64,000 nt of DNA from Obrimoposthia wandeli (lineage: Eukaryota): positions 62,001-126,000 of the forward strand of contig CDROCS010000295.1 in the NCBI GenBank assembly GCA_977020255.1. Direction: 5' to 3'. Made by a program: the position numbers and the translations under genes. The notes under the pieces were generated by a model. That model saw only the letters and a program-made list of their open reading frames with translations. It did not search any database and was not told the DNA's origin. Positions 20,590-61,922 of the stretch are shown piece after piece (the first letter of the stretch is position 1; every line of letters starts with the position of its first letter).

Positions 20590-21331
20590 TGTTGGGGTTT
20601 CTATATGAAACTGTTTTTCTAATATAGAACCTCTGAATGGAGGGCCCCAACGTGAGTTCTATAGACGCAGGACTTGTAGATGTTTGTGGCCTACTTAATG
20701 TTATGCTTGCCTTTCTCAATTCTTATCTGAAGGTTTGTTATTTCTAAATTTGAAGGGTCTATAACAACGCTGTCTAGTTGTAGGAAATCGTTTATTACTA
20801 AGCACACTAAATTAACACGTCTAATTACGTTCTAAAATTACAATACAATTCCTAAGACTTTCGCAAAGTCTCTACACAAGTGGGGATGATCCACGTATCA
20901 ATTTTATTTTAGGGTTGGTTGGTTACTAGAGTCTTTACTCTAAAATGTGACAAGGTTAAAATGGTGGGTTTTTGGAGAGCTGGTTGCTCTAAAATAGGGA
21001 ATGAGTTTAGAGAGCTGGTTGCTAAATATATGTGCTGATTTTAACCTTAACTTCGATTTTTATGTTCACTTTAATTTAGATGCACTTCCCAAACAATATG
21101 GTTACTTATTAAAATTCACGTTTAACTTTTAGATTCACTTACAAAAACAATCGGTTTACTTTATCAAAATTCACGGTTAACTTAAATTCGCTTTCAAAAA
21201 CAATCAGTTTACTTTATCAAAATTCACGTTTAACCCAAATTCGCTTTCAAAAAACAATCGGTTTACTCTATCAAAACTCACTTTCAACTCAAATTTGCCC
21301 CTCAACTCAATGTCACGAATGTTATTTAACA
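20590..21331 (-). mobile_element. LTR (probable 3' LTR) related to the LTR at 47214-49243
   Basis: The reverse complement of 20590-21000 aligns by eye at high identity to about 48790-49243, and both end AAACCCCAACA. The distal boundary (TGTT at 21331) is uncertain and no clear PPT was seen. Confidence 0.8.
21100..21290. repeat. Three to four degenerate ~55-bp tandem repeats within the LTR
   Basis: Unit aaaaacaatcggtttactttatcaaaattcacg(g/t)ttaac...aaattcgctttc. Confidence 0.8.
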
Positions 21332-21336
21332 TGTAT

Positions 21337-21762
21337 TTATACAAAATTGTAAAGATGCGAAGGATTAGGAAAGGAAAGGAGAGGAAAAGGAATTGTGTCA
21401 CTGTTTAATTGTCGATTGTGAGGTCGATGGTGGTAACTGGTCGGTTCTGCTCCTCCAGAAATAACAAAACCCGCTCCAAGGGTAATGCTGAAAATGTTGG
21501 AGTTACTCCGAAGTACAGCTCCAGTTGTTGAAAATGTTGAGGTTGGGACTTTGGCGGAATTGAGGGGCGCCGGGACTGTATCTCTTGTGGGTGTTGAGCC
21601 ACACCTTTCGAGCATACTGCCACGAGTGGCGGTCACGGCTAGATCGCCACACTTCTCGTACGTTGCGCTGCGCGTCGCGACGGCACATAGTGTAGATGGG
21701 GCATTGGCAGTGCTCGCCACCAATACAGCTGGTGGGTGAGCGGGTGCCCTTTGGACGTCCAC
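21337..21762 (-). CDS. Hypothetical Ala/Thr/Pro-rich protein in a GC-rich island of the cassette
   Basis: 141-aa ORF on the same strand as the RING genes; overlapping ORFs in other frames make the frame ambiguous. Confidence 0.3.
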   Translation of the reverse strand: MDVQRAPAHPPAVLVASTANAPSTLCAVATRSATYEKCGDLAVTATRGSMLERCGSTPTRDTVPAPLNSAKVPTSTFSTTGAVLRSNSNIFSITLGAGFVISGGAEPTSYHHRPHNRQLNSDTIPFPLLSFPNPSHLYNFV

Positions 21763-21775
21763 GGCAGTGAACCGT

Positions 21776-21961
21776 TCAATCGGCGAAGGGTGCTCGGCAC
21801 ATTGGGCATGTGATGTTGCCGGCGGGCCGAGCTTTGGCCCACATATAGAGGCACGCCTTGTGGAACCGGTGACGGCATCCGGCAGGGATTGCCGAGGAGT
21901 CCCGAACTCTGTCGAGGCACACCGAGCATATCATCAGCACAATGGTGTGTCGGTTAATCAC
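21776..21961 (-). CDS. Minimal RING-H2 (C3H2C3) protein
   Basis: CSVC-x12-CRHRFHKAC-x14-CPMCR; likely start at the internal ATG (MICSVC). Confidence 0.85.
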   Translation of the reverse strand: MINRHTIVLMICSVCLDRVRDSSAIPAGCRHRFHKACLYMWAKARPAGNITCPMCRAPFAD

Positions 21962-22253
21962 TTTTTTATTTGAAGTTTATATGATTTTTACCTTAATATT
22001 TTAACCTACCGAATTTTGTCTTTTCTTTGGGTATGTTTTTCGCATTTAAAGTATAAAAATTGTCTTTTGGGATTTCAGTATAATAATTACAATTTCAAAT
22101 AAACATCTTACATAAAAATGGTAAAGGTCTTTTTACAGTTTTATACAATTATGATTACAATTATGATTACAATTATGGTAGCTATTTTACCGCGGTATGC
22201 GATACACAGAGTTAGTTCATGATGTCACGTTTATGTCAAAAAGTTACCTTTGA

Positions 22254-22559
22254 TTATTGTTGGCTGTCGGGCTGGCCTGTGCGTCGCTCCTCCACGCAGA
22301 ACATGCACCAGCAGTCGCAGATGTCCTTCCAGCAGTGTACGATGGGTACCACTGCTTGAAAACTGTCTCGGTCGTATACGAAGTGTACCGAGAAGGATGC
22401 CCTGCACATCGGGCAGGTTGGGTAGTCGAGGGGTTTGTTGCTGTTGACAACTGGGATCCATGTCTCGAGGCATTGGACATGAAATTTGTGTTCACAGTTG
22501 TTTGGTTTGGTGTAGAGGTCCACGATGTTCTCGTAGCAGATGGAACATTCTCCAGACAT
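22254..22559 (-). CDS. RING-H2 protein with C-terminal CWK-x4-CWC-x-FC motif
   Basis: CSICYE...CEHKFHVQCL...CPMCR plus HCWKDICDCWCMFC. Confidence 0.9.
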   Translation of the reverse strand: MSGECSICYENIVDLYTKPNNCEHKFHVQCLETWIPVVNSNKPLDYPTCPMCRASFSVHFVYDRDSFQAVVPIVHCWKDICDCWCMFCVEERRTGQPDSQQ

Positions 22560-22619
22560 TGCTGTGAGAGGGGTGATGTTGAATTTGGGCTCAATTGAGG
22601 GCTGGTGGTTGTGTGATGT

Positions 22620-22919
22620 TTACACAAAAGTGGTCGAATCTTGTCGTTCTGCTGTACAGAAGAAACACCAACACTCTCTCAAATTCTTCCAACATAATAC
22701 CACCTGTACATCTACATCCTCTTGGTTGGGTTCTATTATGATGAACTTTGTGAATTGTCTTCTGCATACAGGGCAACGAGGGTATGTTGGATGTAGGAAC
22801 TCTCCATAAGTTCTGATCCATTTTGATAAACATTCCTCGTGGTGTAAGTGGTTGCAGGTATTGGGTCTTGTTCTTCGTTCAGTTATATCTTCCAAACATA
22901 TTGGGCATTCCTCTGACAT
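22620..22919 (-). CDS. RING-H2 protein with C-terminal CWK-x4-CWC-x-FC motif (paralog of 22254-22559)
   Basis: CPICLE...CNHLHHEECL...CPVCR plus LCWKNLRECWCFFC. Confidence 0.9.
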   Translation of the reverse strand: MSEECPICLEDITERRTRPNTCNHLHHEECLSKWIRTYGEFLHPTYPRCPVCRRQFTKFIIIEPNQEDVDVQVVLCWKNLRECWCFFCTAERQDSTTFV

Positions 22920-23046
22920 TCTAAATACGTGATGACAATTAATTTCTACATGAATTTTATATAATGCTACACTTGTTTATACAATCGCTTCTACATATTT
23001 CTACATATTTTTACACTCTTATTTATCTACAACCTCCTCTGACTTG

Positions 23047-23601
23047 TCATGTTTTGATGGGAGGCGGAGGTAAGGGTCGCAATTCCACTTCCTCTATCGT
23101 GGGTTCAGTACAGCATCGCAGTTCTTTGCATTTCCGTCGTATTCTTCGGCATATCTGACTGCCTTTCACGCACACGACTGTCAATAGAACTACTGCAGTT
23201 GACACTACGGCCATTACAATTAAAGCATTGACTGCAGTTATCCCGCTGTCTGAGGATTGGTAATCGTACTTTATTTTGTTGTTTGTCGGTTTGAGTGACG
23301 TCTCAATTGGTGCTTTTCGGTTTCCGTGTATTATGTCCGATTTTCTAATAAATCGTGGATTCGGATATTTTGTTTTTTGTCTAACGGGTATTATTATTCG
23401 AGATTTGAGATCCAGTGGAATCGTTCCCTTCACTCTTGTCCTCTCGATAATTGTGCTTTGGTTTCTGGAATCGAGCTCTTTTCCTTTCACTTCTGCCTTT
23501 TTTATGACTGCTTTTGACTTCTCGGAATGGCGTTTACTTCCTTTCACTTTTGCCTTCTTTATGACTGTGTTTGGTTTCCCGGAATTGAATTTGATGCTCA
23601 T
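23047..23601 (-). CDS. Membrane protein fragment (basic region, TM helix, Cys/Pro-rich tail)
   Basis: Hydrophobic ALIVMAVVSTAVVLLTVVCV followed by CRRIRRKCKELRCC...RPLPPPP; the frame continues upstream to a stop near 23700. Confidence 0.6.
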   Translation of the reverse strand: MSIKFNSGKPNTVIKKAKVKGSKRHSEKSKAVIKKAEVKGKELDSRNQSTIIERTRVKGTIPLDLKSRIIIPVRQKTKYPNPRFIRKSDIIHGNRKAPIETSLKPTNNKIKYDYQSSDSGITAVNALIVMAVVSTAVVLLTVVCVKGSQICRRIRRKCKELRCCTEPTIEEVELRPLPPPPIKT

Positions 23602-23945
23602 ACCTAGTCTACGAAATCGACGTGTCTGGTATCTTAGAGTTATATAGAATATTTCACCCGTTATTACTATGATTACGGTAGAGGTCTCTTTAGCATAACT
23701 GGAAATTCAGTTACATAGACATTCAGCATCATAATGTAGTACTAACATTTGGGTGGTATTGCGAAGTTGATTCCGTCATCTGGATTGGGACACGCCACTG
23801 TTACCTGGTCAGTTTCTAACAATCTGAAGAATAAATTAACAGAATTCCATACAGCTTTACGTCGTTTACCTGTGACCATAATCCTGTCAATAACTTTCCA
23901 GATGCGCTCGTCGTTAGGCAATATTACTGACTTTGTTCGGATAAT

Positions 23946-24242
23946 TTAAATAATCCGTTTCTTTTTTGATATTTTTATTCGTAGGTATAATACCTTTTCA
24001 TAATAGAATAGTATCAGTCGGTAGTAAAGTGTATGTTTGTCAATCTTTATTTCAATCTGGCGGATGACATACAATTTCTGATCGACATTTTCGGTTGCAG
24101 ATGTTTGTAGTTGAATGTCTACTATGTGATTCGTTTTTAGTAGAGGTATTTCTATGTATAACGCACGTATCGTATCTTGTCTCCATTTACTGATCATAAT
24201 ATCGTAACCAGCCTCAGTCGTGGTGATTTGTATGATCAGCAT
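23946..24242 (-). CDS. Hypothetical protein of the accessory cassette
   Basis: 98-aa ORF packed head-to-tail with its neighbours on the same strand; no recognised motif. Confidence 0.4.
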   Translation of the reverse strand: MLIIQITTTEAGYDIMISKWRQDTIRALYIEIPLLKTNHIVDIQLQTSATENVDQKLYVIRQIEIKIDKHTLYYRLILFYYEKVLYLRIKISKKKRII

Positions 24243-24250
24243 GATTCCTA

Positions 24251-25114
24251 TTATCGTTCGGTTCTGAATCTCAGGAACTTCTCAGGGATAACTAAAGTTA
24301 CTATATGTTCATATATCGTTGGCTGATACTCCGGTGCTGGTTCATTTATGAATGCTGGTCTTGGTATATTTGTGTCGAATTTTTGTAAATTCATTTGACC
24401 TGTTCGTCTTGTGAGATCGTGACGTGTTTTTTTTGATTTCAACTCGATCTTTGTACAACAAAACAAGATGAGCAATATTAATATTATGATTCCGATAATC
24501 AATGCCAGTATTGGATTAACCAATTCTAGAATACCATAACGTATTGTTTGTATCTCTTTACTTTTGATGGTTAATATTTTAAATTTATGTGTACTTTGGT
24601 TGGACATGTCACTGAGAAGTACTATTTTAGTTTGTCCAAATGTGTATCCTTCACATGTGACAACACTAACTCCATAATATCCATTTAGTGTTTTCATTTC
24701 TGTCGCGGGTATTATACATACTCGTTCTGGACACCCTTTCACACACATGATCATCACGGCTTTACTGTGAGACGTCTTGATTATTTCTTGGGTGTTGTCT
24801 AGATTTCTCAAATGTAGATTATATTCAGCTAGCGTCATCAATTCAGCTTTACCGATTGGAATGGCTTGTAGTACCAATCCAATTACTACTCCGTAGATCA
24901 ATCCTTGTGCAACAGTGCACAGGCCCTTGATTGTTCTTTTGCAAACAGTTTTGATTATTATTCGTTTGAGATAAATCTGTTTCTGGTTATGTCGTTTTGT
25001 CTTGGTTGTCTGTCGTTGCTTTGACATTTCTTCGATTCCGGTTTTCCGATAATCAACTGTACCGGTTTGCCTTGTATCACCAGCTTTCCGAATCCATTTT
25101 TGGCGGACAGGCAT
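24251..25114 (-). CDS. Type I membrane protein-like ORF
   Basis: Signal-like GLIYGVVIGLVLQAIPIGKA, ~100-aa Cys-containing ectodomain, TM ILALIIGIIILILLILFCC, and a tail with PAPEY and IYEHI. Confidence 0.65.
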   Translation of the reverse strand: MPVRQKWIRKAGDTRQTGTVDYRKTGIEEMSKQRQTTKTKRHNQKQIYLKRIIIKTVCKRTIKGLCTVAQGLIYGVVIGLVLQAIPIGKAELMTLAEYNLHLRNLDNTQEIIKTSHSKAVMIMCVKGCPERVCIIPATEMKTLNGYYGVSVVTCEGYTFGQTKIVLLSDMSNQSTHKFKILTIKSKEIQTIRYGILELVNPILALIIGIIILILLILFCCTKIELKSKKTRHDLTRRTGQMNLQKFDTNIPRPAFINEPAPEYQPTIYEHIVTLVIPEKFLRFRTER

Positions 25115-25320
25115 GTTTTATGTCCTTCCATCGTTTCGATTATCACTCTCTTACTTCCATACTCACGTGTTTTGATGACATCGCTGCCGAATACATACGT
25201 CGTACCTTTTGTATCCGCATCTTTTTGTATTTCCTTTACAATTCGTTTTCTTCGTCTGCATCCGGCGAACGTTGCTGATATTCTATCAAGTGTGCACTGT
25301 CGGTCAACTTCGTAGTCCAT
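24958..25320 (-). CDS. Hypothetical protein, probably a frameshifted upstream part of the cassette polyprotein
   Basis: 120-aa ORF overlapping 24251-25114 in another frame. Confidence 0.35.
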   Translation of the reverse strand: MDYEVDRQCTLDRISATFAGCRRRKRIVKEIQKDADTKGTTYVFGSDVIKTREYGSKRVIIETMEGHKTCLSAKNGFGKLVIQGKPVQLIIGKPESKKCQSNDRQPRQNDITRNRFISNE

Positions 25321-25699
25321 TTCGGAATTGATTCAGTAGTCTGTTTTGTGAATAATAGATCGCTTCATTCACTATGTTCTCCTCGATCCTTTCGTCTAGA
25401 TAAACAAGTACCTGGTTTGTTGGTCCGTTTGGTTTCTTCATTTTTACAAACTGGAATCTTTCTCTGTCGGTTCTTATGGATCAGAAACATTTTCTGATTA
25501 GCCAAACATCGATCAGTCCTATCAACACTAATAGCATCATCAGTGTCGGTGTATTGTACTGCATGATGTAGTTGTGGATTTATTTAAACCAGGAACTATT
25601 TCCATGGTTGGAGCCTATCTCTTGTGCTCCCGTTGTTGGCATTAGACAACTTAACAAGCCTAGTGCTAGCAATCTTCGTTACTGATAGCTGGGCACTGT

Positions 25700-27390
25700 T
25701 GTTGTAACCTCATTCATTTCTCGTTGTTGTTTCCGCCTTTCGGAGTATTTCTCTATTTCTCGAACGAGTAACGGTTTGAATTCCGTATCTGATCTATTCT
25801 GTTTGATGTAGATCATCGCTTCCTCCGGTGTATGACCATGGTACACCTATGGTAGGTGCTAACATTGTACTTTTTTCTGATATATCAGAACGCCATTTCC
25901 TTCTGTGACTTCGGCTTGGATTGTTTGAGTCAACTTCCTCAGGTATTGTTGTGCGTCGTTTACCTCCCGATTTGAAGCATGTATATAACGTGTAGTGTCA
26001 TCTTCAGTATTTTGACATATACTGATTATCTCGTTTTCGACTTCAACAATGTTAATCACTCGGTTGATACTGTGGAACTTTAATCCAGCTGTATCTATAT
26101 CTCCTGGGTGACATAGAAATACTTTCGGCATTATCTGGGTGATTTTGTCGACTCCTGCTAAGAATAATCCGGTCAACGATAGTGATTGGAGGAAATTATT
26201 TTCCTTTGGATCCTCGGGGATGTCATCCATCCGTATCTGTTCTTGCAACAGGAGTTGATAATTTGACAATTGTACCAAAAAATTAAGGTTTGGATTCACG
26301 ATACTTCGTCTTTCTTGTAGATATTTCAGCGCTTCTAGTACCTGCATTCGTCTACTCTTTATTAGATATGCTAATACCAAGGTTGCTGATCTAGAGATTC
26401 CTTTCTGACAATGTACCAACACTTTTCCTTGGTTTTGGAGTTCTTTGTAAATTATCTCGTTTGTTTCTCCGAACCATTCGAGAAGATTAGCCTCCATTGA
26501 GTCTTTCACTCTTAATGTCATAGCTCTGATTGTCTCATTGTAACATTGATCACATATGTTATCCCTTTTTCCAACAGTTTCTTTTTGTCTATTGTGTCTT
26601 CCACATTTCCGAGGTATAACATATCTTGAATTATCTCACTCATTGGTGGCATCAATTCTGACTCCTCAAGTTTTAGTCTTTCTAATCGCTTCTCTATTTG
26701 TTCATCTATGATGAATAATTTCGCCAGTTTCTTTCTTCTCAGCATTCGTATCGCTGGAGAGATATTCATCTTTGTCTCTGATGTCTGTTCCTTTGGTAGT
26801 TCCTCTTCCGACTCGGTCTCTTCTGCAGATTTAATTCGCCTTTCTTGTATATTCTGTTTCATGAAGTCTATGTTTCGTCTTTTTCTGCTTTCTTTAGCGA
26901 ATTCAACCTCCACGGTTCTTCCGAATCGCTCTATTATGTTATCTTCGGATTCTGTTGACTCTGGATTGCTGCTTTCAGGTTCACTGTCTTGACTAGACTC
27001 GCTCGAAGGGTGTTCTGGTATGTCTGTTTGAACTAAAATTAATGAAGGGGTTAGAATAATTGGATTGACTGGTCCTGAGTCTCTGTGAATCGGATACAGT
27101 ATTACACAATCCTTAAGTATCTCAACTTGGAACTGTGCTCCATAGCACATGACGATTGTTTCCAATTTACCCATGATGGACAATCAATCGAAATAGGTGA
27201 CATTCAGCTTAGATATCGGTGTGTTCGCATAATTCACTAAATTGAATCGTATCTCGGTCGATAATGGCCATCGATATTTTAGTAAAATTATAATTTCGTC
27301 GTTTATCGATGTAATCACACTTGGCGCGGATGATACTATTTCAGCATGATATTTTGGCTGGAATGAGTTTGTCATTTGTTCTCTGATCAT
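25700..27390 (-). pseudogene. Tandem dual-specificity phosphatase (catalytic DUSP plus degenerate second DUSP domain), disrupted
   Basis: PMSEIIQDMLYLGNVED...GITYVINVT (ORF 26518-27183) frameshifts into VLVHCQKGISRSATLVLAYLI...RSIVNPNLNFLVQL (ORF 25859-26521). Second domain: ITQIMPKVFL...INRVINIV...GVLIYQK...HTPEEAMIYIKQNRS, lacking the HCxxGxxR motif. ORF 27184-27390 is in frame upstream through a single TGA. Confidence 0.9.
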
Positions 27391-27433
27391 ATTGATTCTT
27401 TGTGGTTTATTTTTTTTATTCTTTGTGGTTTAT

Positions 27434-28165
27434 TCTGGACTTTGAGTGAAGCCAATATGTTGTTTTATGTTTAATAAATATTTTGAAAAATAATTTTGTC
27501 TCGTATTTTGTTTTTTTTTCCTCTAAATTATATATTGATCTGACCGATTTTTCTCCTCTAAATTCTAAAACTGACATAGATATTTATCATGTAGTAATTT
27601 ATTAATCTAAAATCTTTCTTAAAAATAGTAGTAATATTTGAAATCTCGTCTGCGAAAAGCCGCCGGGGTCAATATGGATTCTCGTGGTCTTCTCTAACCA
27701 CTTTTGAGATTAGTGGGAAAATTTTTAAAAAATATGGTGGGGGGGGGAGTACCCCTCTTTCTTCCCCCTTTGAGTGGGATGAAGACACACATACACGAAA
27801 TTTCACTCCACACACATGCACGAATTTTCACTCCACACACATGCACGAATTTTCACTCCACACACATGCACGAATTTTTACTCCACACACATGCTCGGTT
27901 TTAAAGGACAGTAGGGGGGTACCCCCCTTCCTTCCCCCTTTGGGTGGGATGAAGACACACATACACGAAATTTCACTCCACACACATGCACGAATTTTCA
28001 CTCCACACACATGCACGAATTTTTACTCCACACACATGCTCGGTTTTAAAGGACAGTAGGGGGGGGTAGAAAATCTTTCTATACACCAGCACGAAATTTC
28101 ACTCCACACACATGCACGGTTTTAAAGGACAGTAGGGGGGAGAGGGTGTGTTGATTACACCTACT
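27434..28165 (+). mobile_element. Orphan Polinton right end (direct-orientation copy of 37800-38347)
   Basis: Near-identical to 37800-38347 from gagtgaagccaatatg through the 25-bp cacgaaatttcactccacacacatg repeats, ending ACACCTACT; no matching left end or TSD found upstream. Confidence 0.9.
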
Positions 28166-29433
28166 CATACATGCTAGGCTGCATCAATTATGGATACAAC
28201 CCTATTGTAAGAATCCTCTGTCTTTCTTAACGACGGTTTAATCAAATATATCGCCATTTGTATTCTCGATTTTTAAACGCGCAAAAAATCGTCCCTCAAC
28301 GACGATTCGAGAAATTTCTTTCTCATTGTGCCCAGCTTTTATCGACTGTTTTTTTACAGTTTTGATCATGAATACGGCAATTAATTAGTTAGAATGGTAA
28401 ATATTACTTCTAAAGACGCCATTTAGGTATTCAGCTGCCTATTTAACATCGCTTTATCACGCACTTTACTACCGAATTATATATTTATTTCAATCCAGCA
28501 ATTAAAGGGGCATAATGAAAACATGGACAGAAATTAATATGTTGAGAGCTTTTGTTGCAGTCTATACCTTTGTCTTTCAGATACACTTTCTATTTTTAGA
28601 GTTAATTAAACGACATATAATTTTTCTTCAGCCTTATTAAAAAATAAAGAATTTAATTTTAGATTTGAAATATTTAGTGACATCATTTTTCTCAACTCTA
28701 TTTGCAGATCCAGTTTTCTCAACAGGCCCATATTCACAAAGTGCAGTAAAACTGGTCAGCAAAAATATCATAATGCACTAAAGATATGAAGAAATATTGC
28801 ACCGGAAAACAAAATTATGGAATCACTAGTTTGTCTCAGAACTTTTCATTAAAACATAAAATTGTTAAAATTAGATAGATCGTTAATTTCAAAATAGTAT
28901 ATATTAAAAGCACTTTATACAAGGTGTATCGAAATACAAATCATTAAAGAAAATGCTACATAACATATATTTCTTTTATACATTCTTCTCAATTTCATTT
29001 AGATATCTCTTTTCCTGATTATTCCATAAATTTTATCATGTGGCGGGGCGTTATCTTGTTGAAATTTAGGCCATAGTGCACTTCTAAAATATGCACAATG
29101 GAGTATTTTGTAATTCTTCTTCAATTTTGGCTCTTCGGGAAAATATGGTCATTCGCATGTAATCGTATTTTCAGTTGATTGTCCTCTAAAGATAACTTAA
29201 AAATTATTAGATAAGAGTAGGTGGATGTGTCCGGTCTAATCCATACCCCCTCCCCCCTACTGTCCCTTAAAACCGTGCATGTGTGTGGAGTGAAATTCCG
29301 TGCAGGTGTGTAGAAAAAATTTCTACCCCCACCCTCCCAAACACTCAAAAAAATAATTAACTCCATATAACACCCTCCATATAACACCCTGACATTATGT
29401 TCACTGAATCCTGATGACAATACGCTATATAGC

Positions 29434-31612: not shown

Positions 31613-31929
31613 CGCTTTTGGGTAGAAAAGAATGCTAGCCTGGCTTATGGACACTTCCGAATTTAAACGGTTTTCATTTTATTTTATTTTTTTTAGTTTT
31701 GTTTTTTTTAATTTTAGATCCCTATGGCACCTTGACTCTAACTTTTTGTTATTTCAATACTTTTTTAGGTTGGACCTTATCTTTGCTGACATATCTCATT
31801 GTGATGTTGTGATTAATAAATGTATTCAAAAAATTTGTCTTATGTCTTTTATTATTTTACCCTTATATTTTTAGAGATTTAAAAAATAATTAAAAATAAA
31901 ACATTAAAAATATTTATTTTTATAACACA

Positions 31930-32193
31930 CTAATCGTTTTGCAACGATAACCATAAAATACATAAATGTCCACAGTTTCTCGTCGCAGGATCCTGATATT
32001 GTATCTTGTTGTAAAATACTCTTATTCGTCCTTTTTGAATAGTCGAAACAAGTTTGTGTGGATAATACATTGCAAGTGGATCAAATACATGTATTGTCCA
32101 CTCTCTAACATAAATAGCCATCCAATGTTCTCCTGGTAAATTCGAAGTATGAGTATTGATAATGTAACCTCCAGATTGAAAAAATGGAATCAT
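31930..32193 (-). CDS. Polinton adenain-like cysteine (maturation) protease
   Basis: NTHTSNLPGEHWMAIY...FDPL...YQDPATRNCGHLC (His/Asp/Gln/Cys catalytic set). Confidence 0.9.
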   Translation of the reverse strand: MIPFFQSGGYIINTHTSNLPGEHWMAIYVREWTIHVFDPLAMYYPHKLVSTIQKGRIRVFYNKIQYQDPATRNCGHLCILWLSLQND

Positions 32194-50717: not shown

Positions 50718-53700
50718 ATGAATGCAGAACAGTTGGCACAAGCCTTGAATGCGACGTTGAGACCCAACATTTCGGGATCATTGCAGATTACAAAGTTTAA
50801 AGGAGATGAGGAAAGTATTTGTGACTTCCTCGCAGAATATTCGAGTTGCGCAGATGTTCAAGGATGGAACGATAGAGAAAAAGGTGTCCGTGTACAGGCT
50901 CATTTGACCGGATTAGCACTTGAAGTGTATAAACATTTGACAGAAGCAGAACGTTTAAATTGGGAAACGTTGGAAAGTGCTTTTATTGGAAAATTGGTAT
51001 TGGGAGACTTAGCAAAAGTAAATAAGCGAATCATGAGAGAACGAAAACAGAAACATGACGAAAGCGTGAATGAATACGCGTATGTTTTGAGAACCTTGGC
51101 CGCACGAGCGCACCCAAGAAGAATAGTGAGAAATCAGTTAGCTCAACCTGTAGCTCAAGAAGTACAAGCAGCGGAAAAGATCCGGAACCAAAATGAAATG
51201 GCAGAAGTTTTGTTAGATATATTTAGAGGAGGACTGAAAAAAGACATTAAAGTGTTATTGGCAGTATCGGATACAAATGATTTTGATATCGCCGTACGAA
51301 AGGCGAGAGAAATTGAGGAAAATATAAAAAATAACGCAGCATTGGCAATTTACACAATGACCACAGGTGATGACGATAAGACAAAGGTATTTGTGAAAAA
51401 GACAGAACCGAGTAATTTTCAGAATCGAAATTATGGACAAAATAAGTTCGAAAAAGGATATGAATCCAGTAACGGAAATAGAGATAATTTCCGAAGTAGA
51501 AATAGAGATGATTCAACAGGTAGAAATAATAGCGAGCCTTGGAACAGGAATCGAGACGATTCAAGAGGTAGAAGTAGTAATGATTCGTGGAACCGAAATA
51601 GAGATGATTCCAGAAATAGATTTAGTAGAGATAATTCAGGAAATTGCCTACCGTGGAGAGGAGACGATAGGAATTATAACGCAAACAGAGGATAGCGAAA
51701 TGACTCTCGATTTGGAAATAATGCAGGAAGTAGTGACGGAAGATTCAATAATCGAGGAAGCGGTTTTGAATCGAGTTTCCGAAGAAATGATTTTAGAGGA
51801 CGCTATGACAATAGACAGAATAGTCGTCGAATACAGTTCGAAAATGAACAAAATAAGATAGATATTCGAGGGAGAATAATGTATTATACGTGTAAACAAA
51901 TGGGTCACTACTCGAGAGATTGTACGAGAAGTAAAGAATTCGGAACTAACAGATTTGGAAATAATAATTTTGGAAATAATTATAGAGGATATAATTCACC
52001 CCTGCCATGGAATAGAGGTGGTGGGTATACTCTGCTGCAATGGAGACAGAATAATCAGTATACGGATAGACAACAGTCACCAGTCAGATACAATAATTAT
52101 GCAGACAGACAGCAAGGAGCTGAAAGATACAATAATTACGTAGGACAGCAAGGAGCTGAGCAATATAATAATTCCGGAAGATAAAATAATAATAATGTTG
52201 ACAAGACAAATAGTCGTGAGAGTTCGCCGAAACCGAAAGGAAATTTTAGTTACGTAAACGATGACAGCGATAGAAATCGCGAGATCGAACTTCGACGCGA
52301 AATAGATTTTGAAGATAGCGATAGTAAATTTGAACGAATGTTGGGAATAATTAAAGATTCACCGCATACAAAGATGGCGAATTTATCTACGTTGTCGAAA
52401 CAAGGAAAAAATCTGCACTCGAGAGAAGAGATGAATGATTTAATGAACCGAATACTAGAAGCGCATGAAAAACCAATAGAGAAAACGTGTAACGCACAAC
52501 CTATGACTGATCACATAGAAGCAGTAAGAAATGCTAAGAGTATGGAAAATGTGAAAAAGATAATTAGTGAAGCTAAAGAGACGTTGAATCAACCGTTAGA
52601 CGAAGCGAGTGAAACTCCAGAAGTTTTGGCAAAACTACAAACAATTAAAGTGCACAGATTGGAAGAAGTGCGAGCAGAATTGGTTAAACATAGTCATGAT
52701 AACTTGATTTACAAAGATGTATCACGAGGATTATTGAAAGGATATGGTCGTTACGTACAGAGATCAAATCAAAAAGGAACGATGAAAATTTCACTTCGAT
52801 TAATTTCCGGACAGAATATGCATGAAAAACGTAACGTATACCAAACAATGAAAACTATTCGAAAAAGGTTGGCCGAGAAACTCGAAATAGATGGAATGAA
52901 TATGTTGTTCCATTATAAAGGAAGATCACTAGATGATGAAGACATACCAGTCGAGTGCGGATATCCGATAGGAAACGAATTAGAGGAAAAAATTGATGTC
53001 ATCACTGTAGGACGTCAGGAGTTAGTAGATAATGAAGGATTGGCTGAGATATTAAATTCTACGTTAGATATGATAACAACACCTATAGAAATTCTAGACA
53101 GTTCAAGCGAAAGCGGAAATAATGATGTAGCTGAAGCTTGAAACAAGACGTCCACACCTGAACCAAACGTAGCTGAACCACAGGACGTGGAACCAAAAAA
53201 TGAGTTGACGAATCTGGTAGTTGAAGTACCACCTGAGCAAGAGATAATTCAAACCGGACAAGATGAAGTCACGGATGTAGCTAACCAAGTGAGAAACCGC
53301 GAAAAGCGTAACCGAACTAGTTAGAGAAGACGAAATCTCCGAGATTGTAGATTTAGATTCACCAATTTGGCATGCCGCATACAGAGATAGACAGGCAGAG
53401 CAGACGATGCGACAAAAATGAGGAGATTGGTCATGTAGCAGGACCAATTCAAGAGGTACAGTATAATGATGAACCGTATGATCCAGGTGAGAATCAAACT
53501 GAGTATCAGTATTTTCGAAGAGGGCCTGGAAAACCTAGAAAATATGGAAGTATATTACGAAATGTTCTAACTGCACCTCAAACTGATGAGGAGATACATC
53601 TAAGCATTGGACAGTTAGCAGCGTCATTAGAGCAGTATAGTGCAGAGCGAAATGAAGATATCAGGGGTGATATGAATTCGGAAGCTCCAAGTAGTAAAGA

Positions 53701-54055
53701 TATACTTACGGGAATTATCAGGCAAGTAAAGCCGAAGTTGTTCAAAATGTACAAAGATGAAACAACCGATATAACAGACAATTTGACTAGAGCAGTTAGA
53801 TCACAAATGTCTGCAGTGAAGAAAATGACTGCTAATCAAGAATACCATGCATCAATAGACAGATTCTATGATGGCGAAGTTTTAGCGAGATTATGTGGAA
53901 ACCAGACTACAAATAAGAAGCTAGTCACAGCGATTACATATATATGTTTCCAATTGACGGAAAGAACGAGCCAACCTCACGAAGTCAAACAAGGAATAAA
54001 TGAAGCGATATATCTGATCGAGAACGTATTGCAGCGACGAATTGACGAAAATTGA
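50718..54055 (+). pseudogene. gag: Extended Gag polyprotein (capsid, R/G/N-rich linker, Zn knuckle, ubiquitin-like domain, unknown domains)
   Basis: ITKFKGDEES..DFL...GWND, RKQKHDESVNEY, FRGGL (capsid); YYTCKQMGHYSRDC (CCHC with first C changed to Y). ORFs 50718, 51879 and 52338 share one frame separated by single stops; 53372 follows after a frameshift. Confidence 0.85.
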
Positions 54056-54181
54056 GGTTGGGCAAAATTAAGCGACTACGCTAAAACCATTGTGGAAATG
54101 AATGAAGACGATGAGGAACAATGCCATGAGAATCGTCAAAGAGAAAATAAAAAAACCGTCCGAAAGAAAGAAACAATCAAC

Positions 54182-54640
54182 NNNNNNNNNNNNNNNNNNN
54201 NNNNNNNNNNNNNNNNNNNNNNNNNNNNNNNNNNNNNNNNNNNNNNNNNNNNNNNNNNNNNNNNNNNNNNNNNNNNNNNNNNNNNNNNNNNNNNNNNNNN
54301 NNNNNNNNNNNNNNNNNNNNNNNNNNNNNNNNNNNNNNNNNNNNNNNNNNNNNNNNNNNNNNNNNNNNNNNNNNNNNNNNNNNNNNNNNNNNNNNNNNNN
54401 NNNNNNNNNNNNNNNNNNNNNNNNNNNNNNNNNNNNNNNNNNNNNNNNNNNNNNNNNNNNNNNNNNNNNNNNNNNNNNNNNNNNNNNNNNNNNNNNNNNN
54501 NNNNNNNNNNNNNNNNNNNNNNNNNNNNNNNNNNNNNNNNNNNNNNNNNNNNNNNNNNNNNNNNNNNNNNNNNNNNNNNNNNNNNNNNNNNNNNNNNNNN
54601 NNNNNNNNNNNNNNNNNNNNNNNNNNNNNNNNNNNNNNNN
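54182..54640. other. Assembly gap (459 N)
   Basis: Run of N bases. Confidence 1.
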
Positions 54641-54642
54641 AA

Positions 54643-55410
54643 CAGGCATCAGCGTTAGTAGCATACGACTGTAGCGTACCACAGATGGGACAAAAGTATT
54701 CACTGCTTGACAGCGAGGACTGTCCAGAATCACAACCCTCAAAATTAGAAATTAAAGGTGTTGAAAACTATTTCGTGTATCAGGATGTTGATAAAATACA
54801 GGTACAAGTGAAGGAATGCTCAGTTCATTCAAGTTATCACGAATTTTACTGTGGTCATAGAGGTTTTATGTCGGAAATCACACCTACCACACTGTACAAA
54901 CCACACAAGGTCTTTCCTGGAGATTGCGAAGGCGCATTTCGAACAGGAAAAATAGAAATAGATAAGAATTACAAACCTGATGTGAAAATTGGGGTGAGAC
55001 GATACGAAACAGTCACGAGAGTAGGATGACGATGGGCTGATGGATCTTGTGACGGAGGAACAAAAAACGTGCGTGGTACCGAAGTAACAGAGTTAGTAAT
55101 GGACGTAACTTACCAGATCGAATTAAAAACATGGACCGCCAATTTTGATAAAAATACAAAACGAATGATGAAGTATCCGGAATATAGATTGACAGATACA
55201 TCTTGTCATACAGGTGAATCCACCATTGTGTATCACGTGGATCCAAAACAATGCTCTTTAGTATTTTTGAAAGAGATTAGATTTAATAAAATAAAAGGGT
55301 TCCTGTATAATAAAGGTGGAGAAGGATTTCATAACATAACAGGACCAATTCCTACGACGCCGACACCTACACTGTTAATGGCAAAGAAAACAAAGAAAAA
55401 AAAAACCTAA
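54643..55410 (+). pseudogene. env: Chuvirus-like (class III fusion) glycoprotein, N-terminal ectodomain fragment
   Basis: QASALVAYDCSVPQMGQKYSLLDSEDC...VQVKECSVHSSYHEFYCG...DCEGAFRTGKI...VG*RWADGSCDGG matches the recalled YDC...SLLD.x.C...C...YCG...G..DG.C.G cysteine pattern of chuvirus-type glycoproteins; one in-frame TGA; no TM reached. Confidence 0.75.
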
Positions 55411-55522
55411 GAAAACTTTACATCATGAATTTTGCGAGTTTTGTATTGTTAAAAAAAAAATAAAGCAAAAAGAACAGAAAACTGAATGTATAGTCGAATA
55501 CCAAATCACACGTAAAGAGATT

Positions 55523-55882
55523 TTGGCTCAACAAGACACACCGGTAGTGTCATTCGTTAGAAGACTATATCCAAAAAAAGCAGAAAGAATCAGAGATTTG
55601 GTAGAAAATAAAATAAAAACTACGCGAAACGGATACGGATCAATTTTTGAATTACTGCGAGATAAAGATGACAGTACAATTGAAACAAAAGAAAAAGAGT
55701 ACATAAATGAACTAGAATACGTACTAGAAGATCCGGAATGCGCAGTTTGTATGGTCAACAAAATAGAAGTTGCCTTTTTACCATGCAGACATGTGAGAAC
55801 ATGTCGGAGATGTGCGAAGGAAATGGTATCATGCCCGATTTATGCCCAGAAAGATAATAGATCGACAAGTGAGAAATATTAG
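55523..55882 (+). pseudogene. IAP/MGRN-type RING-HC domain directly upstream of the protease
   Basis: ECAVCMVNKIEVAFLPCRHVRTCRRCAKEMVSCPI; a frameshift switches to RKIIDRQVR in the protease frame. Confidence 0.85.
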
Positions 55883-57241
55883 ATTTCACTATCCAAACAA
55901 AGGAAGTGGACCGACAAAATTTAATAATTCGATAAATACAATACACCATATGGGAAATATAAATGGAGCACAGCGACCAGCAGCTATCATTAGAGTGAAT
56001 AATTTAAAAGTAAAAGCCTTAATTGATACAGGTGCTGTAGCTTCGATAGTAAGTGAAGATTGTTTGACAGAGGAACAGAAACAAACAATGGCAGAACCAG
56101 ATGAATTCTTGGTATCGGTCAATGGAGACCCTGTAAAAGTGACGGGATAATTACCATGTACATTTATAATTGGACGTAATACGATCACTATACCAGTTAG
56201 AATCATGAAAGAATGTCTTGAACCTACAATTTTAGGAATGGATGTACTATCACAACTCAAAGGGATAAGTATTGATTTACAAGATCCAATATTGAAAGAT
56301 AGTAAGTCAAACAGACAAATAAATCAAATCAATGTAATTATAGAAAATCCTATAAAAATCTGTAAAAGATCGCAATTTCTTATTCAAGGTTACACATTAT
56401 AAGAAGATAAAGGACCAGTTGTGTTCGAACCATCACGGGATTTCATAGAGAAATACGAATTACCGATTGTGAGTACAGTATGTCTGATTGAAAACCACAA
56501 AATACCAGTTAGACTGATGAATACAACCAACAATGACATCCTATTATACAGAGGAATGAGGTTGGGAAAAATAGCACAGATGGAGAATTCCACTGTATGT
56601 GCTATGAAACTCGATAAAGATAGGAATGATTACGAAAAATAGTAATCCAAACAGAAAGACTGACAACCAGAGAAAAGAAACAATTACTCGATCTAATACA
56701 TAAATTTCCAAAAGTAATTGCAAAAAATCCGTATGACATAGGAGAAACACCTGTCATAAAACACACAATACCGCTGACAGAAGACAAAGTAGTCAGAAAA
56801 AGACCATATCGAGTACCATTACAGTTACAAGATGAAGTCAAAAGTCAGATTGAAGATATGTCTAGAACAGGAGTAATTAGACCGAGTTTTTCACCATTTT
56901 TAGCACCTGTGGTGTTAGTAAAAAAGAAGGATGGAAAAATGAGATTATGTATAGATTTCAGAGAACTGAACAAGATCACAAGAAAAGATGTGTATCCATT
57001 ACCTAGAATTGAAGAGATGCTTGATAAATTAGGTAATTCAGATTATTTTACGACATTGGATTTGCAGAGTGGATACTGGCAAATCGAGATAGAGGAAGAG
57101 GATAAACACAAAACAGCCTTTTCCTGCGGAGATGGACTATACGAATGCGAAAAAGGCCATTCGGACTGACAGGAGTGCCAGCAACATTTCAGCGTTGCAT
57201 GAATTTTGTACTCGCATCATGTGCAAACACGATGGTTTAAT
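55812..57241 (+). pseudogene. pol: pol, 5' part: aspartic protease, spacer and RT N-terminal half
   Basis: ALIDTGA and ILGMD (protease); RPYRVP, SPFLAPVVLVKKKDGKMRLCIDFRELN, YPLPRI, TLDLQSGYWQI, KTAF, PATFQR (RT); stops and frameshifts. Confidence 0.95.
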
Positions 57242-60200
57242 GGTTCTAGGACAATTACCCGCCGGACAATTACCCCCCGGACATTTACCCGCCGGACAAC
57301 TACCCGCCGGACAATTACCCGACTAGAACAATTACCCGCCGGACAAATACCCCCCGGACAATTACCCGACTAGGACAATTACCCGCCGGACAATTACCCC
57401 CCAAAAAATACAGGGCGAGTTGATGCACTTTTAATATAAACAATAAATTAAAATTTTTTACGAAGAGGGGTAATTTAATTATATTTATTTATTTAGATTA
57501 ATTAAATTAGTAAAAAGTTATTAATAAGGGGGTAATCAAAAAAGTGAAATATTAAAAAAGTAAAAAAGTTAAATAAGGATAAACTATAAAGGGAGGTATT
57601 AAAATGGTAAAAACTTTAAAGTGTTACTTAATTAAATGACAGATACTAACATATGATAATGGAATTGGTCTAGTATGACTCATGTATATTTAGACGCCAG
57701 TAATACAACTTAACGCTAAGAGAGTTTGTATAAAACTAATAAAACTATTTAGGTCAAAATTGATAAGTATATGTTCACAATGTTGGGGCAGACTTAATGA
57801 ATTAGGAGTTGGTGCGTGTTGAGGCGTAGCCAGTAGTTACAATTAAATCGAAGTTAGTTAGATTTATAAGTTAGTAAGATTCACAAGATAAACAATCATT
57901 GTATATTTTACCCATGGAATTTATTAACTCTAACCGGGGAAAAATAAAGGTACTATACAAGGGCTTTGTATATGTTAAGTCCAAAACGTTGTCATCTGGT
58001 GCTGTTTCTTACGAGTGTGAGCTCCGACGAAACAGCAAGCAATGCAAAGCTAGGATTATAGTAAGTGGCGATATGATTGTTAAACAGTTCAACGACCATA
58101 CTCATGCTGCTGATATTGGTCGACCAGAGGCACTGAAGATTCGTCAGTCGATAAAGAGTCGTGCTGTAAATAACGAGGAAACCCCTCAGCAAGTTATCAC
58201 CCAAGAGCTTCAAGTTATTTCCGACTCTGCTGCTGTGAAACTTCCAGCCATACGCAACATCCGACGTTGTATTCGTCGACATCGTCAAGTTGCCGGAAAT
58301 CCTCCCGCAATCCCGCAGACTCGTGCCGAAATTATACTACCTGAAAAGTACAAACGTACACTGGCAGATCAGCCTTTCCTATTATTTGACAGTGGTTCAG
58401 TTGATGATAGGATCCTTATGTTCTCTACAGAGCGTAATCTGCACATCCTCGACACATCCGTAGACTGGTTTTGTGATGGAACGTTTAAGGTTGTACCTGG
58501 TGTATTTTACCAATTATTTACAATTCACGGTCTTACCAACAACCACATGGTTCCCTGTGTCTATGCACTTTTGCCAAATAAGCAGGAAGTGACGTACGTG
58601 ACCTTTCTACGTGAACTTTATAGACTTAATCCGGAGCTAAAACCACGATCTATCATGATTGACTTTGAGTCGGCTTCCAGGAATGCACTGGCCGAGGTTT
58701 TTCCTGCCGCAACCATACAAGGATGCTTTTATCATTTGTCACAAGCCGTCTACCGCAAAGTCCAAAGTGTTGGACTTCAAGAGCAATATCAAAACAACGC
58801 CGATTTTAGCTTAAAGATTTGCATGATGACTGCTCTTGCTTTCACTCCACTGAACGATGTGGTAAACTCATTTGAACATCTGGCTGATTCTATGCCTGAG
58901 AAAGCACAACCCATTATAGACTATATTGAGGACACCTATATTGGTCGACACCAACGCTCTTCGCTCATGCCATGTGGAACGTCCGAGACAGAGTAGAGGA
59001 AGGACTTCCACGTACCAACAACCATGTGGAAGGTTGGCATCGACGTATGCAGTCTAATGTGGGAGCCTATCATCCTAGTATCTGGCATTTCCTGGATGTA
59101 TTGCAACGCGAGCAATCACTCAACGAAGTCATCATGACACAGATTCTAGCCGGACAAGCAGCCCCACCCCAACGTGGCAAATACAAGGCCATCACCGAGC
59201 GCCTAGTTACTGTTGTGGCTGACTATGACAACCGTGCTATCCTGGACTTTCTTTGTGGTATTGCACACAACCTACAGATGTAGATTCTGTGATGATCAAT
59301 GTGACTGTTATAGAATTGTTCTTATTCAAGAATAACTATACAAATAAATAAACACATGTCAATTGTTTTTTTCTTACCTTCCAGTATTCTTAACAATATC
59401 TATTCAATAACCTATTTAGCACTTTACTTTCTTCTTTTTCTTGTTGTAAGTCCTCTACTTCAAGTTTTTTCCTTTCTCTTACTTCTTCATCGTGTCTAAT
59501 GGCTACGCCTCAACTTGTCCAGCCCGAAACGGTTTCTAATTGAGTAAGTCTGCATCAACTCTCTCCAGGGCGAGTTGAGGCTCTTTTAAAGGGGTAATTT
59601 TGAGTAATTTTTTTTTGTAATGGAGAAACAAAAGCTAAAATAAAAAGGTCTAAATTGTAATTTAATTTCCATAAATCTGAAAGGGATGGGTATTAAAAAT
59701 TTTATGGGGTAACAAAATTTAGTAAGAGGTATAATAATTAATAAGATCAAAATATTAAAAAATGAAATAGTAAAATTTTAATAGGTGTAATTAAAAAAAA
59801 GTAAATAATAATAAGGGGTGTTAAAAAAGGGAAACATTAAAATATTAATAACAGATGATATAAAAAGGAAAAAAATGAAATGAAGATAAAAAAAGGAAAC
59901 AGTCAAACTTTAAAGGTAAAAAAGTAGAAAAGGTAAATATTAACAAATGAGACATTGTGAACATATACTTATCAATTTTGACCTAAATAGTTTTATTAGT
60001 TTTATACAAACTCTCTTAGCGTTAAGTTGTATTACTGGCGTCTAAATATACATGAGTCATACTAGACCAATTCCATTATCATATGTTAGTATCTGTCATT
60101 TAATTTTGTAACACTTTAAAGTTTTTACCATGTTAATACCTCCCTTTTTAGTTTATCCTTATTTAACTTTTTTCCTTTTTTAATTTTTAGGTTTTTATAC

Positions 60201-60460
60201 CCCCTTATTAATAACTTTTTACTAATTTAATTAATCTAAATAAATAAATACAATTAAATTAACCCTCTTCGTAAAAAATTTTAATTTATTGTTTATATTA
60301 AAAGTGCATCAACTCGCCCTGTATTTTTTGGGGGGTAATTGTCCGGTGGGTAATTGGCCTAGTCGGGTAATTGTCCGGGGGGTATTTGTAAGGCGGGTAT
60401 TTGTCCTAGTCGGGTAATTGTCCGGCGGGTAAATGTCCGGCGGGTAATTGTCCTGTTACC
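57242..60460 (+). mobile_element. Mutator (MULE) DNA transposon inserted in RT
   Basis: ~540-bp TIRs (57242-57783 and 59952-60460) with terminal ggacaattacccgcc subrepeats; 8-bp TSD ggtttaat at 57234-57241 and 60461-60468. Confidence 0.95.
57899..59283 (+). pseudogene. FLYWCH-MULE transposase with one frameshift near 58960
   Basis: YKGFVYVK...YEC...CKARI (FLYWCH), WFCDGTF...YQLFTIH, PCVYALLPNK, IMIDFE, GCFYHLSQA, RTNNHVEGWH, HPSIWHFL. Confidence 0.92.
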
Positions 60461-60468
60461 GGTTTAAT

Positions 60469-61547
60469 TCGATGACATAATAATATTTTCTAAAACGTTC
60501 GAAGAACATCTAAAAAATCTTGAAGTTGTATTTAAAAGACTGGAAAACACTAAATTAAAAGTTAAACCTACAAAATGCGAATGGGCTAAAGAGCGAGTAA
60601 CATTTTTAGGACATATAGTATCGAAAGAAGGCATCCGACCTGATCCAGCAAAGATCGAGAAAGTAAAAGCGCATGTAGTGCCAAAGACTGTTAATGAAAT
60701 ACAGAGTTTTTAGGTCTTGCGAACTATTATAGACGATTTGTTGAACATTTTTCAGATATAGCAACACCATTGAGAAAGTTGACGAGGAAAGATGAGAAGT
60801 TCATATGGGGAAAAGAAGCACAACAAGCGTTCGAGCATTTAAAGGAAAGACTGATAAAAGCACAAATATTAGCGTTTCCAGATATAAACCGATAATTCAT
60901 ATTAATGACGGATGCAAGTAACTATGCTGTAGGAGCAGCATTGGGAGAAGAGGATGACGAGGGAAGAGAACACGTCATCGCGTATGCGAGTAGAGGGTTA
61001 AACAGAGCTGAACTCTGTTATTGAAAAGGAATATCTAGCCATAGTATATTCATGTAGACAGTACAGACACTACTTGCCAGGAGAAAATGTATTCCTGTAT
61101 ACAGATCACAAACCACTACAGTTCTTGTATAAACATAGAGACGAGATGAGTAGATTAAACAGATGGTTTCTGAAATTGGCCGAATTTGATCTAGAAATCC
61201 GTTATAGAACCGGAAAGTCAAATGGAAATGCAGATTGTTTGTCGAGATTGATAAATGTAGACGAGAAAGGAAATATAATTCCAGAAGAAGGTCAAGATGA
61301 AGTCAACGACCAAAAAGGAGAAACAAATCTACTAACGATTTTGCTGAATAAGGGTAAAATAGACAAAGAGATCATCAAGGAACATAAAGAAGATGAAGAA
61401 CTGAGTCTAATCAAAGAACTGTTAGTGAAAGGAGATCTAAACGATGAAATGACGAAAACATACTCGATAAAAGAAGGAATCTTGTATATTGTCAACAATG
61501 TCGGAAACATAGTAGTAGTAATTCCGAAATCATTGAAAACAGTTTAG
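60469..61547 (+). pseudogene. pol: pol, 3' part: RT C-terminal half and RNase H, truncated before integrase
   Basis: FDDIIIFSKTFEEHL, KPTKC, FLGHIVS, GLANYYRRFV, TDASNYAVGA, IAYASR, YTDHKPL, RLNRWFLKL, NGNADCLSR. Confidence 0.95.
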
Positions 61548-61732
61548 AAAGAGATAATCTTGAGCTGTGGTTTGTAAATATCAACAAGATTAAGATTCCA
61601 ATCAGAGCCGAATATTATAAGAATGTTTAAAATTCAAATTGCGATTGGTCCTAAGCATAATAAACTTCGCTGTCAATTACGATTTGTCTGGAGCACTGCT
61701 GACTGTATCTTATTATTTCAGGCGCAGCCGCC

Positions 61733-61922
61733 CGGACCGGAGGGTCGAGTCGCTGTCTGTGAAATTTGCGAGGATGAACCAATAAGGATGGCCCTGGTTC
61801 CATGTGGCTATACGATGTGTATGCAGTGCTCCTTGTCGATACAAGACTGTCCATTCTGTAGAGAAATTGTTAACAAACGGCAGAAATTAACTTTGGAGAA
61901 GAAGATGCAGATCCAGAAATAA
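61733..61922 (+). CDS. RING-HC-like domain (IAP type; His replaced by Tyr)
   Basis: CEICEDEPIRMALVPCGYTMCMQCSLSIQDCPFCREIV; preceded by a ttattatttcag acceptor-like site. Confidence 0.75.

Follow-up and report, generated by a model that had tools for sequence, protein, structure and literature searches.

The 64-kb stretch of contig CDROCS010000295.1 analyzed here (hereafter the window; the Obrimoposthia wandeli genome it belongs to spans 1.35 Gb) contains two broken pieces of a giant long terminal repeat (LTR) retroelement, one on the plus strand at 47214-61542 with gag, env, and pol sequences and one on the minus strand at 20590-27430 with dual-specificity phosphatase (DUSP), membrane-protein, and RING-H2 sequences. 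These are the broken halves of one Ty3/gypsy family whose members are 21-22.5 kb long. Within the window they are two separate insertions in divergent orientation with different parts of U3, rather than a single element, and they share an LTR end, as had been recognized in a preliminary description of this DNA: positions 20587-21023 on the minus strand match 49246-48808 at 87.6% identity over 442 nt.

The plus-strand copy begins with a 2,030-bp 5' LTR bounded by TG...CA (47214-49243), which has its own 56-bp tandem array at 48074-48758 and is followed by a primer-binding site (PBS; 49252-49270), a 19-nt stretch complementary to the 3' terminus of a host tRNA-Met(CAT) that recurs in exact 27-mer copies, and by a leader array of 17 units of 48 bp (49365-50180), two units of which fold as one long stem (z -2.5). 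A Gag capsid-like domain with one CCHC knuckle, fragmented here, was recognized by Pfam at 50697-52181 (PF03732 in the window frames at E 0.0012, under the cut-off), and the plus-strand frames also returned zf-CCHC, aspartyl protease, RVT_1, and RT_RNaseH. Then come a putative ubiquitin-like (Ubl) domain, weakly matched in Pfam and PDB (52782-53010), a Bcl-2-fold domain recognized from a sequence match and a structure model directly upstream of the envelope protein (Env) (53693-54090), and the 5' part of a class III, gB/Monjiviricetes-type Env (54641-55384; PF24664, E 2e-12 in the window). A deletion of ~2.5 kb at 55384/55405 has removed the rest of Env, a second protease, and a BIR domain, all of which other copies keep; the C3HC4 RING that follows (55730-55850; E 6e-10) lies downstream of BIR in undeleted copies, where the two form an IAP-like pair. 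The aspartyl protease (PR) and the first part of the reverse transcriptase (RT), both identified by Pfam, occupy 55950-57240, and the stretch between them is putatively dUTPase-like; the PR-RT interval contains a constrained stretch of ~90 codons, with a ratio of nonsynonymous to synonymous change (N/S) of 0.09 and no match in Pfam or PDB. At 57241-60460, RT is split by a secondarily inserted MULE DNA transposon with FLYWCH and MULE transposase domains, terminal inverted repeats of ~500 bp, and an 8-bp GGTTTAAT duplication. The remainder of RT and the RNase H (RH) follow at 60461-61542, where the copy stops with neither integrase (IN) nor downstream cargo.

The minus-strand copy supplies the other end. 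Read in its own direction, it opens with a beta-sandwich repeat and an acidic linker (26640-27414), identified by repeat comparison and a structure model as the third repeat of a series that lies after integrase in other copies. DUSP1 follows at 26250-26640 with an intact HCQKGISR P-loop, and DUSP2 at 25750-26170 with a P-loop that, by comparison, has no Cys or Arg, making it a likely pseudophosphatase; Pfam finds DSPc in two stretches of the minus-strand frames (E 3e-32). A membrane-protein region with several hydrophobic segments (23050-25700) is likely composed of signal-peptide/type I membrane units at the end of a polyprotein. Beyond it lie RING-H2 genes a (22620-22919; ATG 1 nt past a TAG acceptor-like site), b (22254-22559; ATG 2 nt past a CAG acceptor-like site), and c (21410-21934), the last frameshifted here and the most divergent gene across copies. 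Pfam detects two RING-H2 domains in the window (E 3e-8 and 5e-10), and RING-H2c was recognized by its ligand pattern, complete in 9 of 16 stretches. The copy ends in a 3' LTR remnant at 20590-21300, made up of the R/U5 end (...AACA) and a partial U3 with a 53-bp array, the LTR head being missing. The tandem DUSP, the membrane proteins, and the three RING-H2 genes upstream of a 3' LTR are as the preliminary description had them, and so are the A-rich sense strands (A 39.7-39.8%, T 22.7-22.9% in two copies); for the plus-strand piece, its Gag, class III env, and RING-PR-RT-RH stand, its Ubl is a weak assignment, and its second RING (61578-61919) belongs to another repeat.

That the two halves belong together is clear from copies elsewhere in the genome. 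Searches with each half both matched one contig, on the same strand and 3 kb apart. The DUSP region lies downstream of pol in five of six pol-anchored regions, the sixth having the RING-H2 end, and gag, pol, DUSP, the membrane region, and RING-H2a/b are present in all six PBS-anchored regions, a set biased toward whole copies because five were picked by the PBS and pre-LTR motif pair and one by PBS plus pol. In a less biased test, the 5.5 kb upstream of 20 DUSP matches, drawn from the best 40, were read: integrase lay directly upstream of the DUSP cassette in 19/20 and RT in 1/20. Four copies retain both LTR ends and measure 18.3 (deleted), 21.1, 22.0, and 22.5 kb, which gives a total length of 21.1-22.5 kb with an internal region of 18.9 kb; a perfect 4-bp target site duplication (TSD) flanks two of the four, and the LTRs of three differ by 1.4, 1.5, and 2.5%. 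The affiliation of the family is equally consistent, with the order PR-RT-RH-IN, Ty3 as the best solved RT relative (E 8e-69), YIDD in 12 copies, and the TG...CA LTRs, tRNA PBS, and short TSD of Ty3/gypsy (Metaviridae) elements all present. Genome-wide, there are at least 616 PBS junctions (exact 27-mer pattern) and 1,490 exact 24-mer copies of the pre-3'-LTR junction, with reversed controls giving 0 for both. We consider it quite probable that this is a high-copy Ty3/gypsy LTR element, its Env placed between Gag and Pol, whose signaling domains sit inside the LTR pair and would be released from a single predicted polyprotein to blunt host apoptosis and stress-kinase signaling. The earlier proposal of a >20-kb element with DUSP/RING-H2 and env/pol between one pair of LTRs and a TSD is upheld by the full copies, with the TSD in two of four. 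Two recombined loci were also seen: a full-size copy on contig C2364 lacks a TSD and has U3 middles that are unrelated between its two LTRs, and it probably arose by ectopic recombination between two insertions; at C208:295001-303000 a single LTR is preceded by the pre-LTR motif and followed by a PBS, representing a tandem or recombined element pair.

From these copies, we infer a polyprotein in the order Gag-CCHC-Ubl-Bcl2 fold-class III Env-protease2-BIR-RING-PR-RT-RH-IN-three beta repeats-DUSP-pseudoDUSP-membrane proteins, with three separate RING-H2 open reading frames downstream of it behind splice-acceptor-like sites. Between gag and the last membrane domain, each of 52 consecutive anchor intervals is open in three or more copies (the weakest in 3/10; 15 stretches), so that no stop is common to copies anywhere in this region and a single polyprotein of ~5,300 aa is indicated, the codon number being estimated from where the ATG and the stop lie. 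A natural frame of 1,014 aa spans both IN and DSPc; of the post-integrase region, 150 copies were scored, and 23 lie in natural frames longer than 2,000 aa, the longest being 3,293 aa. For the RING-H2 genes, an AG stands 0-2 nt before the ATG in 11/11, 11/11, and 12/13 copies (a, b, and c, respectively) vs 28/128 internal background ATGs. There are four RING domains per element, one C3HC4 and three RING-H2, and not the up to five first envisaged, the fifth being that of the separate repeat. The Bcl-2 fold, BIR, second protease, integrase, beta repeats, and single-polyprotein layout are additions to the preliminary description.

Among the individual modules, the Bcl-2 region (~130 aa before Env) has viral Bcl-2 (vBcl-2) of Kaposi's sarcoma-associated herpesvirus (KSHV) as its best sequence match (E 0.04). 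Its fold model has a pLDDT of 70, only 1 of 5 models exceeding 55, and comparison with structures by VIA gave Z 13.4 (rmsd 2.9, 133 aligned), with the top 29 rows all Bcl-2 family and no unrelated fold above Z 5; KSHV vBcl-2 is again the best match, with animal Bcl-2s tied within 1 Z. Env covers PF24664 profile positions 4-632 in pieces, with E down to 2e-68 in copies, and has a C-terminal transmembrane segment; in one copy, a (GAT)n expansion of ~950 bp occupies the Env signal-peptide region, at a site that is N in the window. In undeleted copies, a second aspartyl protease lies between Env and BIR, and BIR itself reaches E 3e-13 in Pfam. Three repeats of ~100 aa come after integrase and were modeled as a beta-sandwich (pLDDT 61), for which Foldseek ranks the BCAP DBB domain first (E 0.044) and VIA gives a best Z of 6.3 and Z 4.7 for DBB; no ESM Atlas match to them was found. 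DUSP1 keeps the HCQKGISR/CX5R P-loop in 10 of 12 copies, in agreement with the HCX5R(S/T) signature of active dual-specificity phosphatases, and its best solved relative is cellular DUSP10/MKP5 (E 1e-23), whereas the catalytic P-loop (Cys, Arg) of DUSP2 is absent from all 11 copies read. The last ~900 aa contain four strong hydrophobic segments and match no family; in ESM Atlas, the membrane region yielded only viral glycoprotein leads below 0.9, a level reached by a third of shuffles.

The variation among copies shows most of this cargo to be under purifying selection, RING-H2a excepted. N/S was computed on variants common to at least two copies, which have likely passed through active lineages, and it falls between 0.06 and 0.46 in 18 of 20 modules: 0.11 for RT-RH, 0.06 for IN, 0.14 for Ubl, 0.27 for Env, 0.15 for the Bcl-2 fold, about 0.21-0.22 for the beta repeats, 0.25 for DUSP1 (p 1.5e-5), about 0.08-0.09 for DUSP2, 0.21-0.46 for the membrane parts (region A 0.22), 0.25 for RING-H2b, and 0.41 for RING-H2c. 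Controls gave 1.06-4.2 in shifted frames, except 0.62 for RING-H2a, and 0.66-2.2 in non-coding sequence; all p-values are indicative only, because the copies are related. Single-copy variants have N/S nearer 1 and carry stops, as predicted by decay after insertion.

The LTRs tell a different story from the coding core. In the 13 copies whose internal region was verified, the median divergence of pol at fourfold sites is 5.9%, and LTR heads are 83% and tails 93% alike, whereas the ~1.1-kb U3 middle aligns with a median score of 32 vs 27 for shuffles, only 8 of 78 pairs scoring above 100. With 24 further LTRs added from the LTR alone (16 of 40 PBS-anchored stretches were dropped, having no LTR head or tail within 2.4 kb), 39 U3 middles, including window 47454-48793, make up 35 clusters when mutual coverage of 50% is required. 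Less than 10% of the sequence is alignable in 697 of 741 pairs, and most middles have their own 26-82-bp tandem unit. Assembly error was rejected as the source of this diversity, since within a single copy the 5' middle matches the 3' middle, as was seen in three of four copies. RING-H2c, the last gene before the LTR, is also deeply divided (fourfold p 0.40 vs 0.05-0.16 elsewhere), and copies 96% alike in it can have unrelated U3s. The primer tRNA-Met(CAT) is encoded in a tandem gene array at C2252:485-11858, one gene every ~284 bp, and all 11 copies read have a conserved 24-mer before the 3' LTR consisting of a T-run, GGAA, a C-run, and GAGATA, which partly echoes the PBS.

Several features of the window lie outside the element. 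A Polinton-like remnant with pPolB, integrase, A32 ATPase, and C5 protease (27434-38363) cuts the minus-strand copy, and Polinton-like elements interrupt three examined copies in all (the window and two other loci), each at a different position. Arrays of a 25-bp CACACACATGCACG family, often as inverted pairs, occur at Polinton-like ends and elsewhere, in the window at 1700-1900, 27744-28161, 29203-29376, 38072-38363, and 62382-62550. The RING-bearing piece at 61545-62000 (plus strand) was tried as a part of the element and rejected, as it belongs to a separate repeat family: this repeat has 40 scored genomic matches, often several per contig, two loci inspected carry no element modules, and RING 61578-61919 has no match in the element loci examined. 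Rfam gave no match anywhere in the window.

The closest precedent is Burro, which, together with GYPSM1, represents the giant gypsy-like elements of planarians (Grohme 2018 and Jurka 2007, as cited in PMC6431247). As described in PMC6431247, Burro exceeds 30 kb, with an internal region of up to 25 kb and a single open reading frame of 4,873-5,140 aa for Gag, CCHCs, MATH, Ubi/SUMO-like, BCL2, Env, BIR, PR, dUTPase-like, RT, RH, IN, and ankyrin, besides AIR1/Smc motifs and two or three CCHC knuckles; it is under PIWI control according to PMC8532177. On that description, the element resembles Burro in its single polyprotein of ~5,000 aa, an in-frame mononegavirus-like Env between Gag and Pol, high copy number, a likely flatworm host, and the run Ubl-BCL2-Env-BIR-PR (Ubl weak here) followed by RT-RH-IN. 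It differs in being smaller (21-22.5 vs >30 kb), in having one CCHC and no MATH or ankyrin domain that Pfam recognizes in natural frames along its length, and in adding a second protease, a RING after BIR, and, behind integrase, three beta repeats, a DUSP and pseudo-DUSP, membrane proteins, and three RING-H2 genes. The Gag-to-PR half closely follows the Burro order, and it is for the post-integrase cargo that no published description was found; the preliminary description was right to name Burro as a precedent but understated how close this half is, and its view of the combination as undescribed applies to the post-integrase cargo and not to the front-half order, already that of Burro in PMC6431247. 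No description of an LTR element with a DUSP or RING-H2 gene was found in the literature listings searched, which did not cover Repbase, Dfam, or subscription journals. GAG-ENV-POL errantiviruses with Env of the herpes simplex virus (HSV) gB type occur in flatworms, nematodes, and bryozoans (PMC13524379), and they likewise have a class III Env between gag and pol, eight Env cysteines of the element lining up by eye with those of Smed_errantivirus_1; the main text of PMC13524379 has no mention of Burro, phosphatase, RING, or BIR, and describes no accessory cargo. A 1,582-aa protein from an ENA assembly (P0278) has a Bcl-2-like region followed by Env (46% identity across 80% of the query Env) and by aspartyl-protease-like domains, as in the element, but with three protease-like units after Env and no BIR by Pfam, and it is known from the protein alone. 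Among long proteins, no homologues of the post-integrase region were found, which is weak evidence. An RT search of long proteins gave 920 matches, with no DSPc or PF24664 among the 120 listed, mostly concatenated gene models; in a search of representative proteins with the beta repeats and DUSP1, all 150 listed best stretches lay in the DUSP/linker part and none in the repeats, and the 10 that were checked proved to be DUSP proteins, either ordinary or with several DUSP domains. No Burro sequence came up in any search. Viral contigs contained no relative of the element. As to the host, COX1 codon use suggests a flatworm, at the level of phylum: in the multi-copy COX1 of large contigs, conserved columns show AAA for Asn, AGR for Ser, and ATA for Ile, a flatworm/echinoderm pattern in a flatworm-like sequence. 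Many contigs with bacterial-type COX1 are present in the assembly as well, along with one other COX1 of animal type.

Because the window cassette abuts a Polinton remnant at 27434, and Polintons interrupt two other copies as well, the DUSP/RING genes could have been a host locus or Polinton cargo that merely lies near an LTR. We regard this as virtually out of the question: IN or RT is directly upstream in 20/20 DUSP-anchored copies, IN and DSPc share a frame, the cassette sits inside TSD-flanked LTR pairs, and the Polinton breakpoints differ from copy to copy. It is rejected for the sampled copies on the linkage, the shared frame, and the LTR pairs; the cassette was not missing from full copies, as the preliminary description had allowed it might be, and the window Polinton is a later interruption. 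That the cargo is passive, recently transduced host DNA without function is improbable, in spite of the weak constraint on RING-H2a (0.76) and BIR (0.61) and the broken state of all examined copies, given the low N/S of DUSP1, DUSP2, the beta repeats, membrane region A, Bcl-2, and RING-H2b against controls near or above 1, the lack of introns in the cargo, and DUSP relatives that, at their closest among 150 listed, are only 27-46% identical. Whether the element is a member of the Burro family with lineage-specific cargo, rather than a separate kind, is a closer matter. The Gag-Ubl-BCL2-Env-BIR-PR-RT-RH-IN order and ~5,000-aa polyprotein of Burro (PMC6431247), a likely flatworm host, and the by-eye match of the Env cysteines to Smed_errantivirus_1 make this entirely conceivable, if somewhat doubtful, since Pfam finds no MATH, ankyrin, or second or third CCHC, the internal region is 18.9 kb vs up to 25 kb, and the extra protease and all post-integrase cargo are absent from the same description. 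We have filed the element as Burro-like, not Burro, because it lacks the size and, by Pfam, the MATH/ankyrin/multi-knuckle features of Burro.

The U3 diversity could likewise have arisen by very fast mutation in place with tandem-repeat turnover, as the 26-82-bp unit peculiar to nearly every U3 and the partial similarity kept in 8 of 78 pairs would suggest. This is possible but rather unlikely, as recombination predicts both the deep split of RING-H2c and the unrelated U3s on copies 96% alike in that gene; old 3' cassettes recombined onto a young coding core appear to fit the pattern best. Tnt1, Retrolyc1, and Retrosol copia elements of Solanaceae also combine a conserved coding core with a hypervariable U3, with two to three U3 groups per genus (PMC1838419), and the variation here is of that kind, but a single genome has no fewer than 35 types in 39 LTRs. 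A number of results weigh against our overall reading of the element and should be set beside it. No examined copy has a complete frame, each being broken at private places, so the full polyprotein is one not seen whole. A clean TSD is absent in two of the four two-LTR copies, the LTRs of the fourth are 18% apart (likely a recombinant), and no purine-rich polypurine tract precedes the 3' LTR in 11 copies. The Ubl assignment is weak (Pfam E 0.0085-0.02; a PDB ubiquitin variant at E 0.008), as is that of the beta repeats to IPT/TIG (DBB-like) domains, with no sequence match and no singling out of DBB by VIA. RING-H2a shows no significant purifying signal (p 0.33), BIR is relaxed, and no splice donor was identified for the RING-H2 genes. 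Finally, a candidate cleavage motif, I-x-M-[LI]-R, has five occurrences, all of them at borders between cargo modules and all conserved from copy to copy. It was defined post hoc, however, and its four-letter form is reached by 64/1000 shuffles (not significant); a looser form is reached by 1/1000.

Elements of the Ty3/gypsy type share a common mode of replication, several parts of which are seen here. Within it, the two aspartyl proteases would cut the modules out of the ~5,300-aa polyprotein, and Env and the C-terminal units would enter the endoplasmic reticulum via internal signal peptides. The Bcl-2 fold and BIR-RING may block apoptosis, DUSP1 may dephosphorylate MAP (stress) kinases or similar targets, with DUSP2 as a catalytically dead binding partner, and the RING-H2 genes would be expressed from spliced RNAs, cis- or leader-trans-spliced, with products that ubiquitinate host proteins. 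The unrelated U3 middles would derive from promoter cassettes of an old pool, joined to the young coding core by recombination in reverse transcription. In this way, the cargo likely blunts host apoptosis and stress-kinase signaling while the element replicates; the Bcl-2, BIR-RING, DUSP, and RING-H2 activities are predicted ones. Large DNA viruses carry vBcl-2, IAPs, VH1/PTP phosphatases, and RING ligases as accessory genes, and the functional kit is the same, here within a retroelement polyprotein. The likeness of gene load drawn in the preliminary description stands, but nothing found points to a viral donor: DUSP1 is closest to cellular DUSP10/MKP5 among solved structures. At its most speculative, and rather doubtfully as a whole, the element could represent a lineage of enveloped invertebrate retroviruses, active until recently, with a counter-defense kit of poxvirus scale (Bcl-2, IAP, a MAPK-type phosphatase and decoy, TIG-like adaptors, surface proteins, and three operon-like spliced E3 ligases) and a recombining library of at least 100 unrelated promoters with which to escape silencing or change tissue.

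These results imply that invertebrate LTR retroelements can carry regulatory genes, maintained by selection, in a load comparable to that of large DNA viruses and beyond that of Burro, including a phosphatase fused behind integrase. The cargo points to apoptosis, stress kinases, and ubiquitination as pathways that likely restrict retroelements in a host whose antiviral defense is poorly known, and each cargo domain is separately assayable. The U3 library, in turn, offers a natural test of whether promoter swapping may outrun piRNA silencing.

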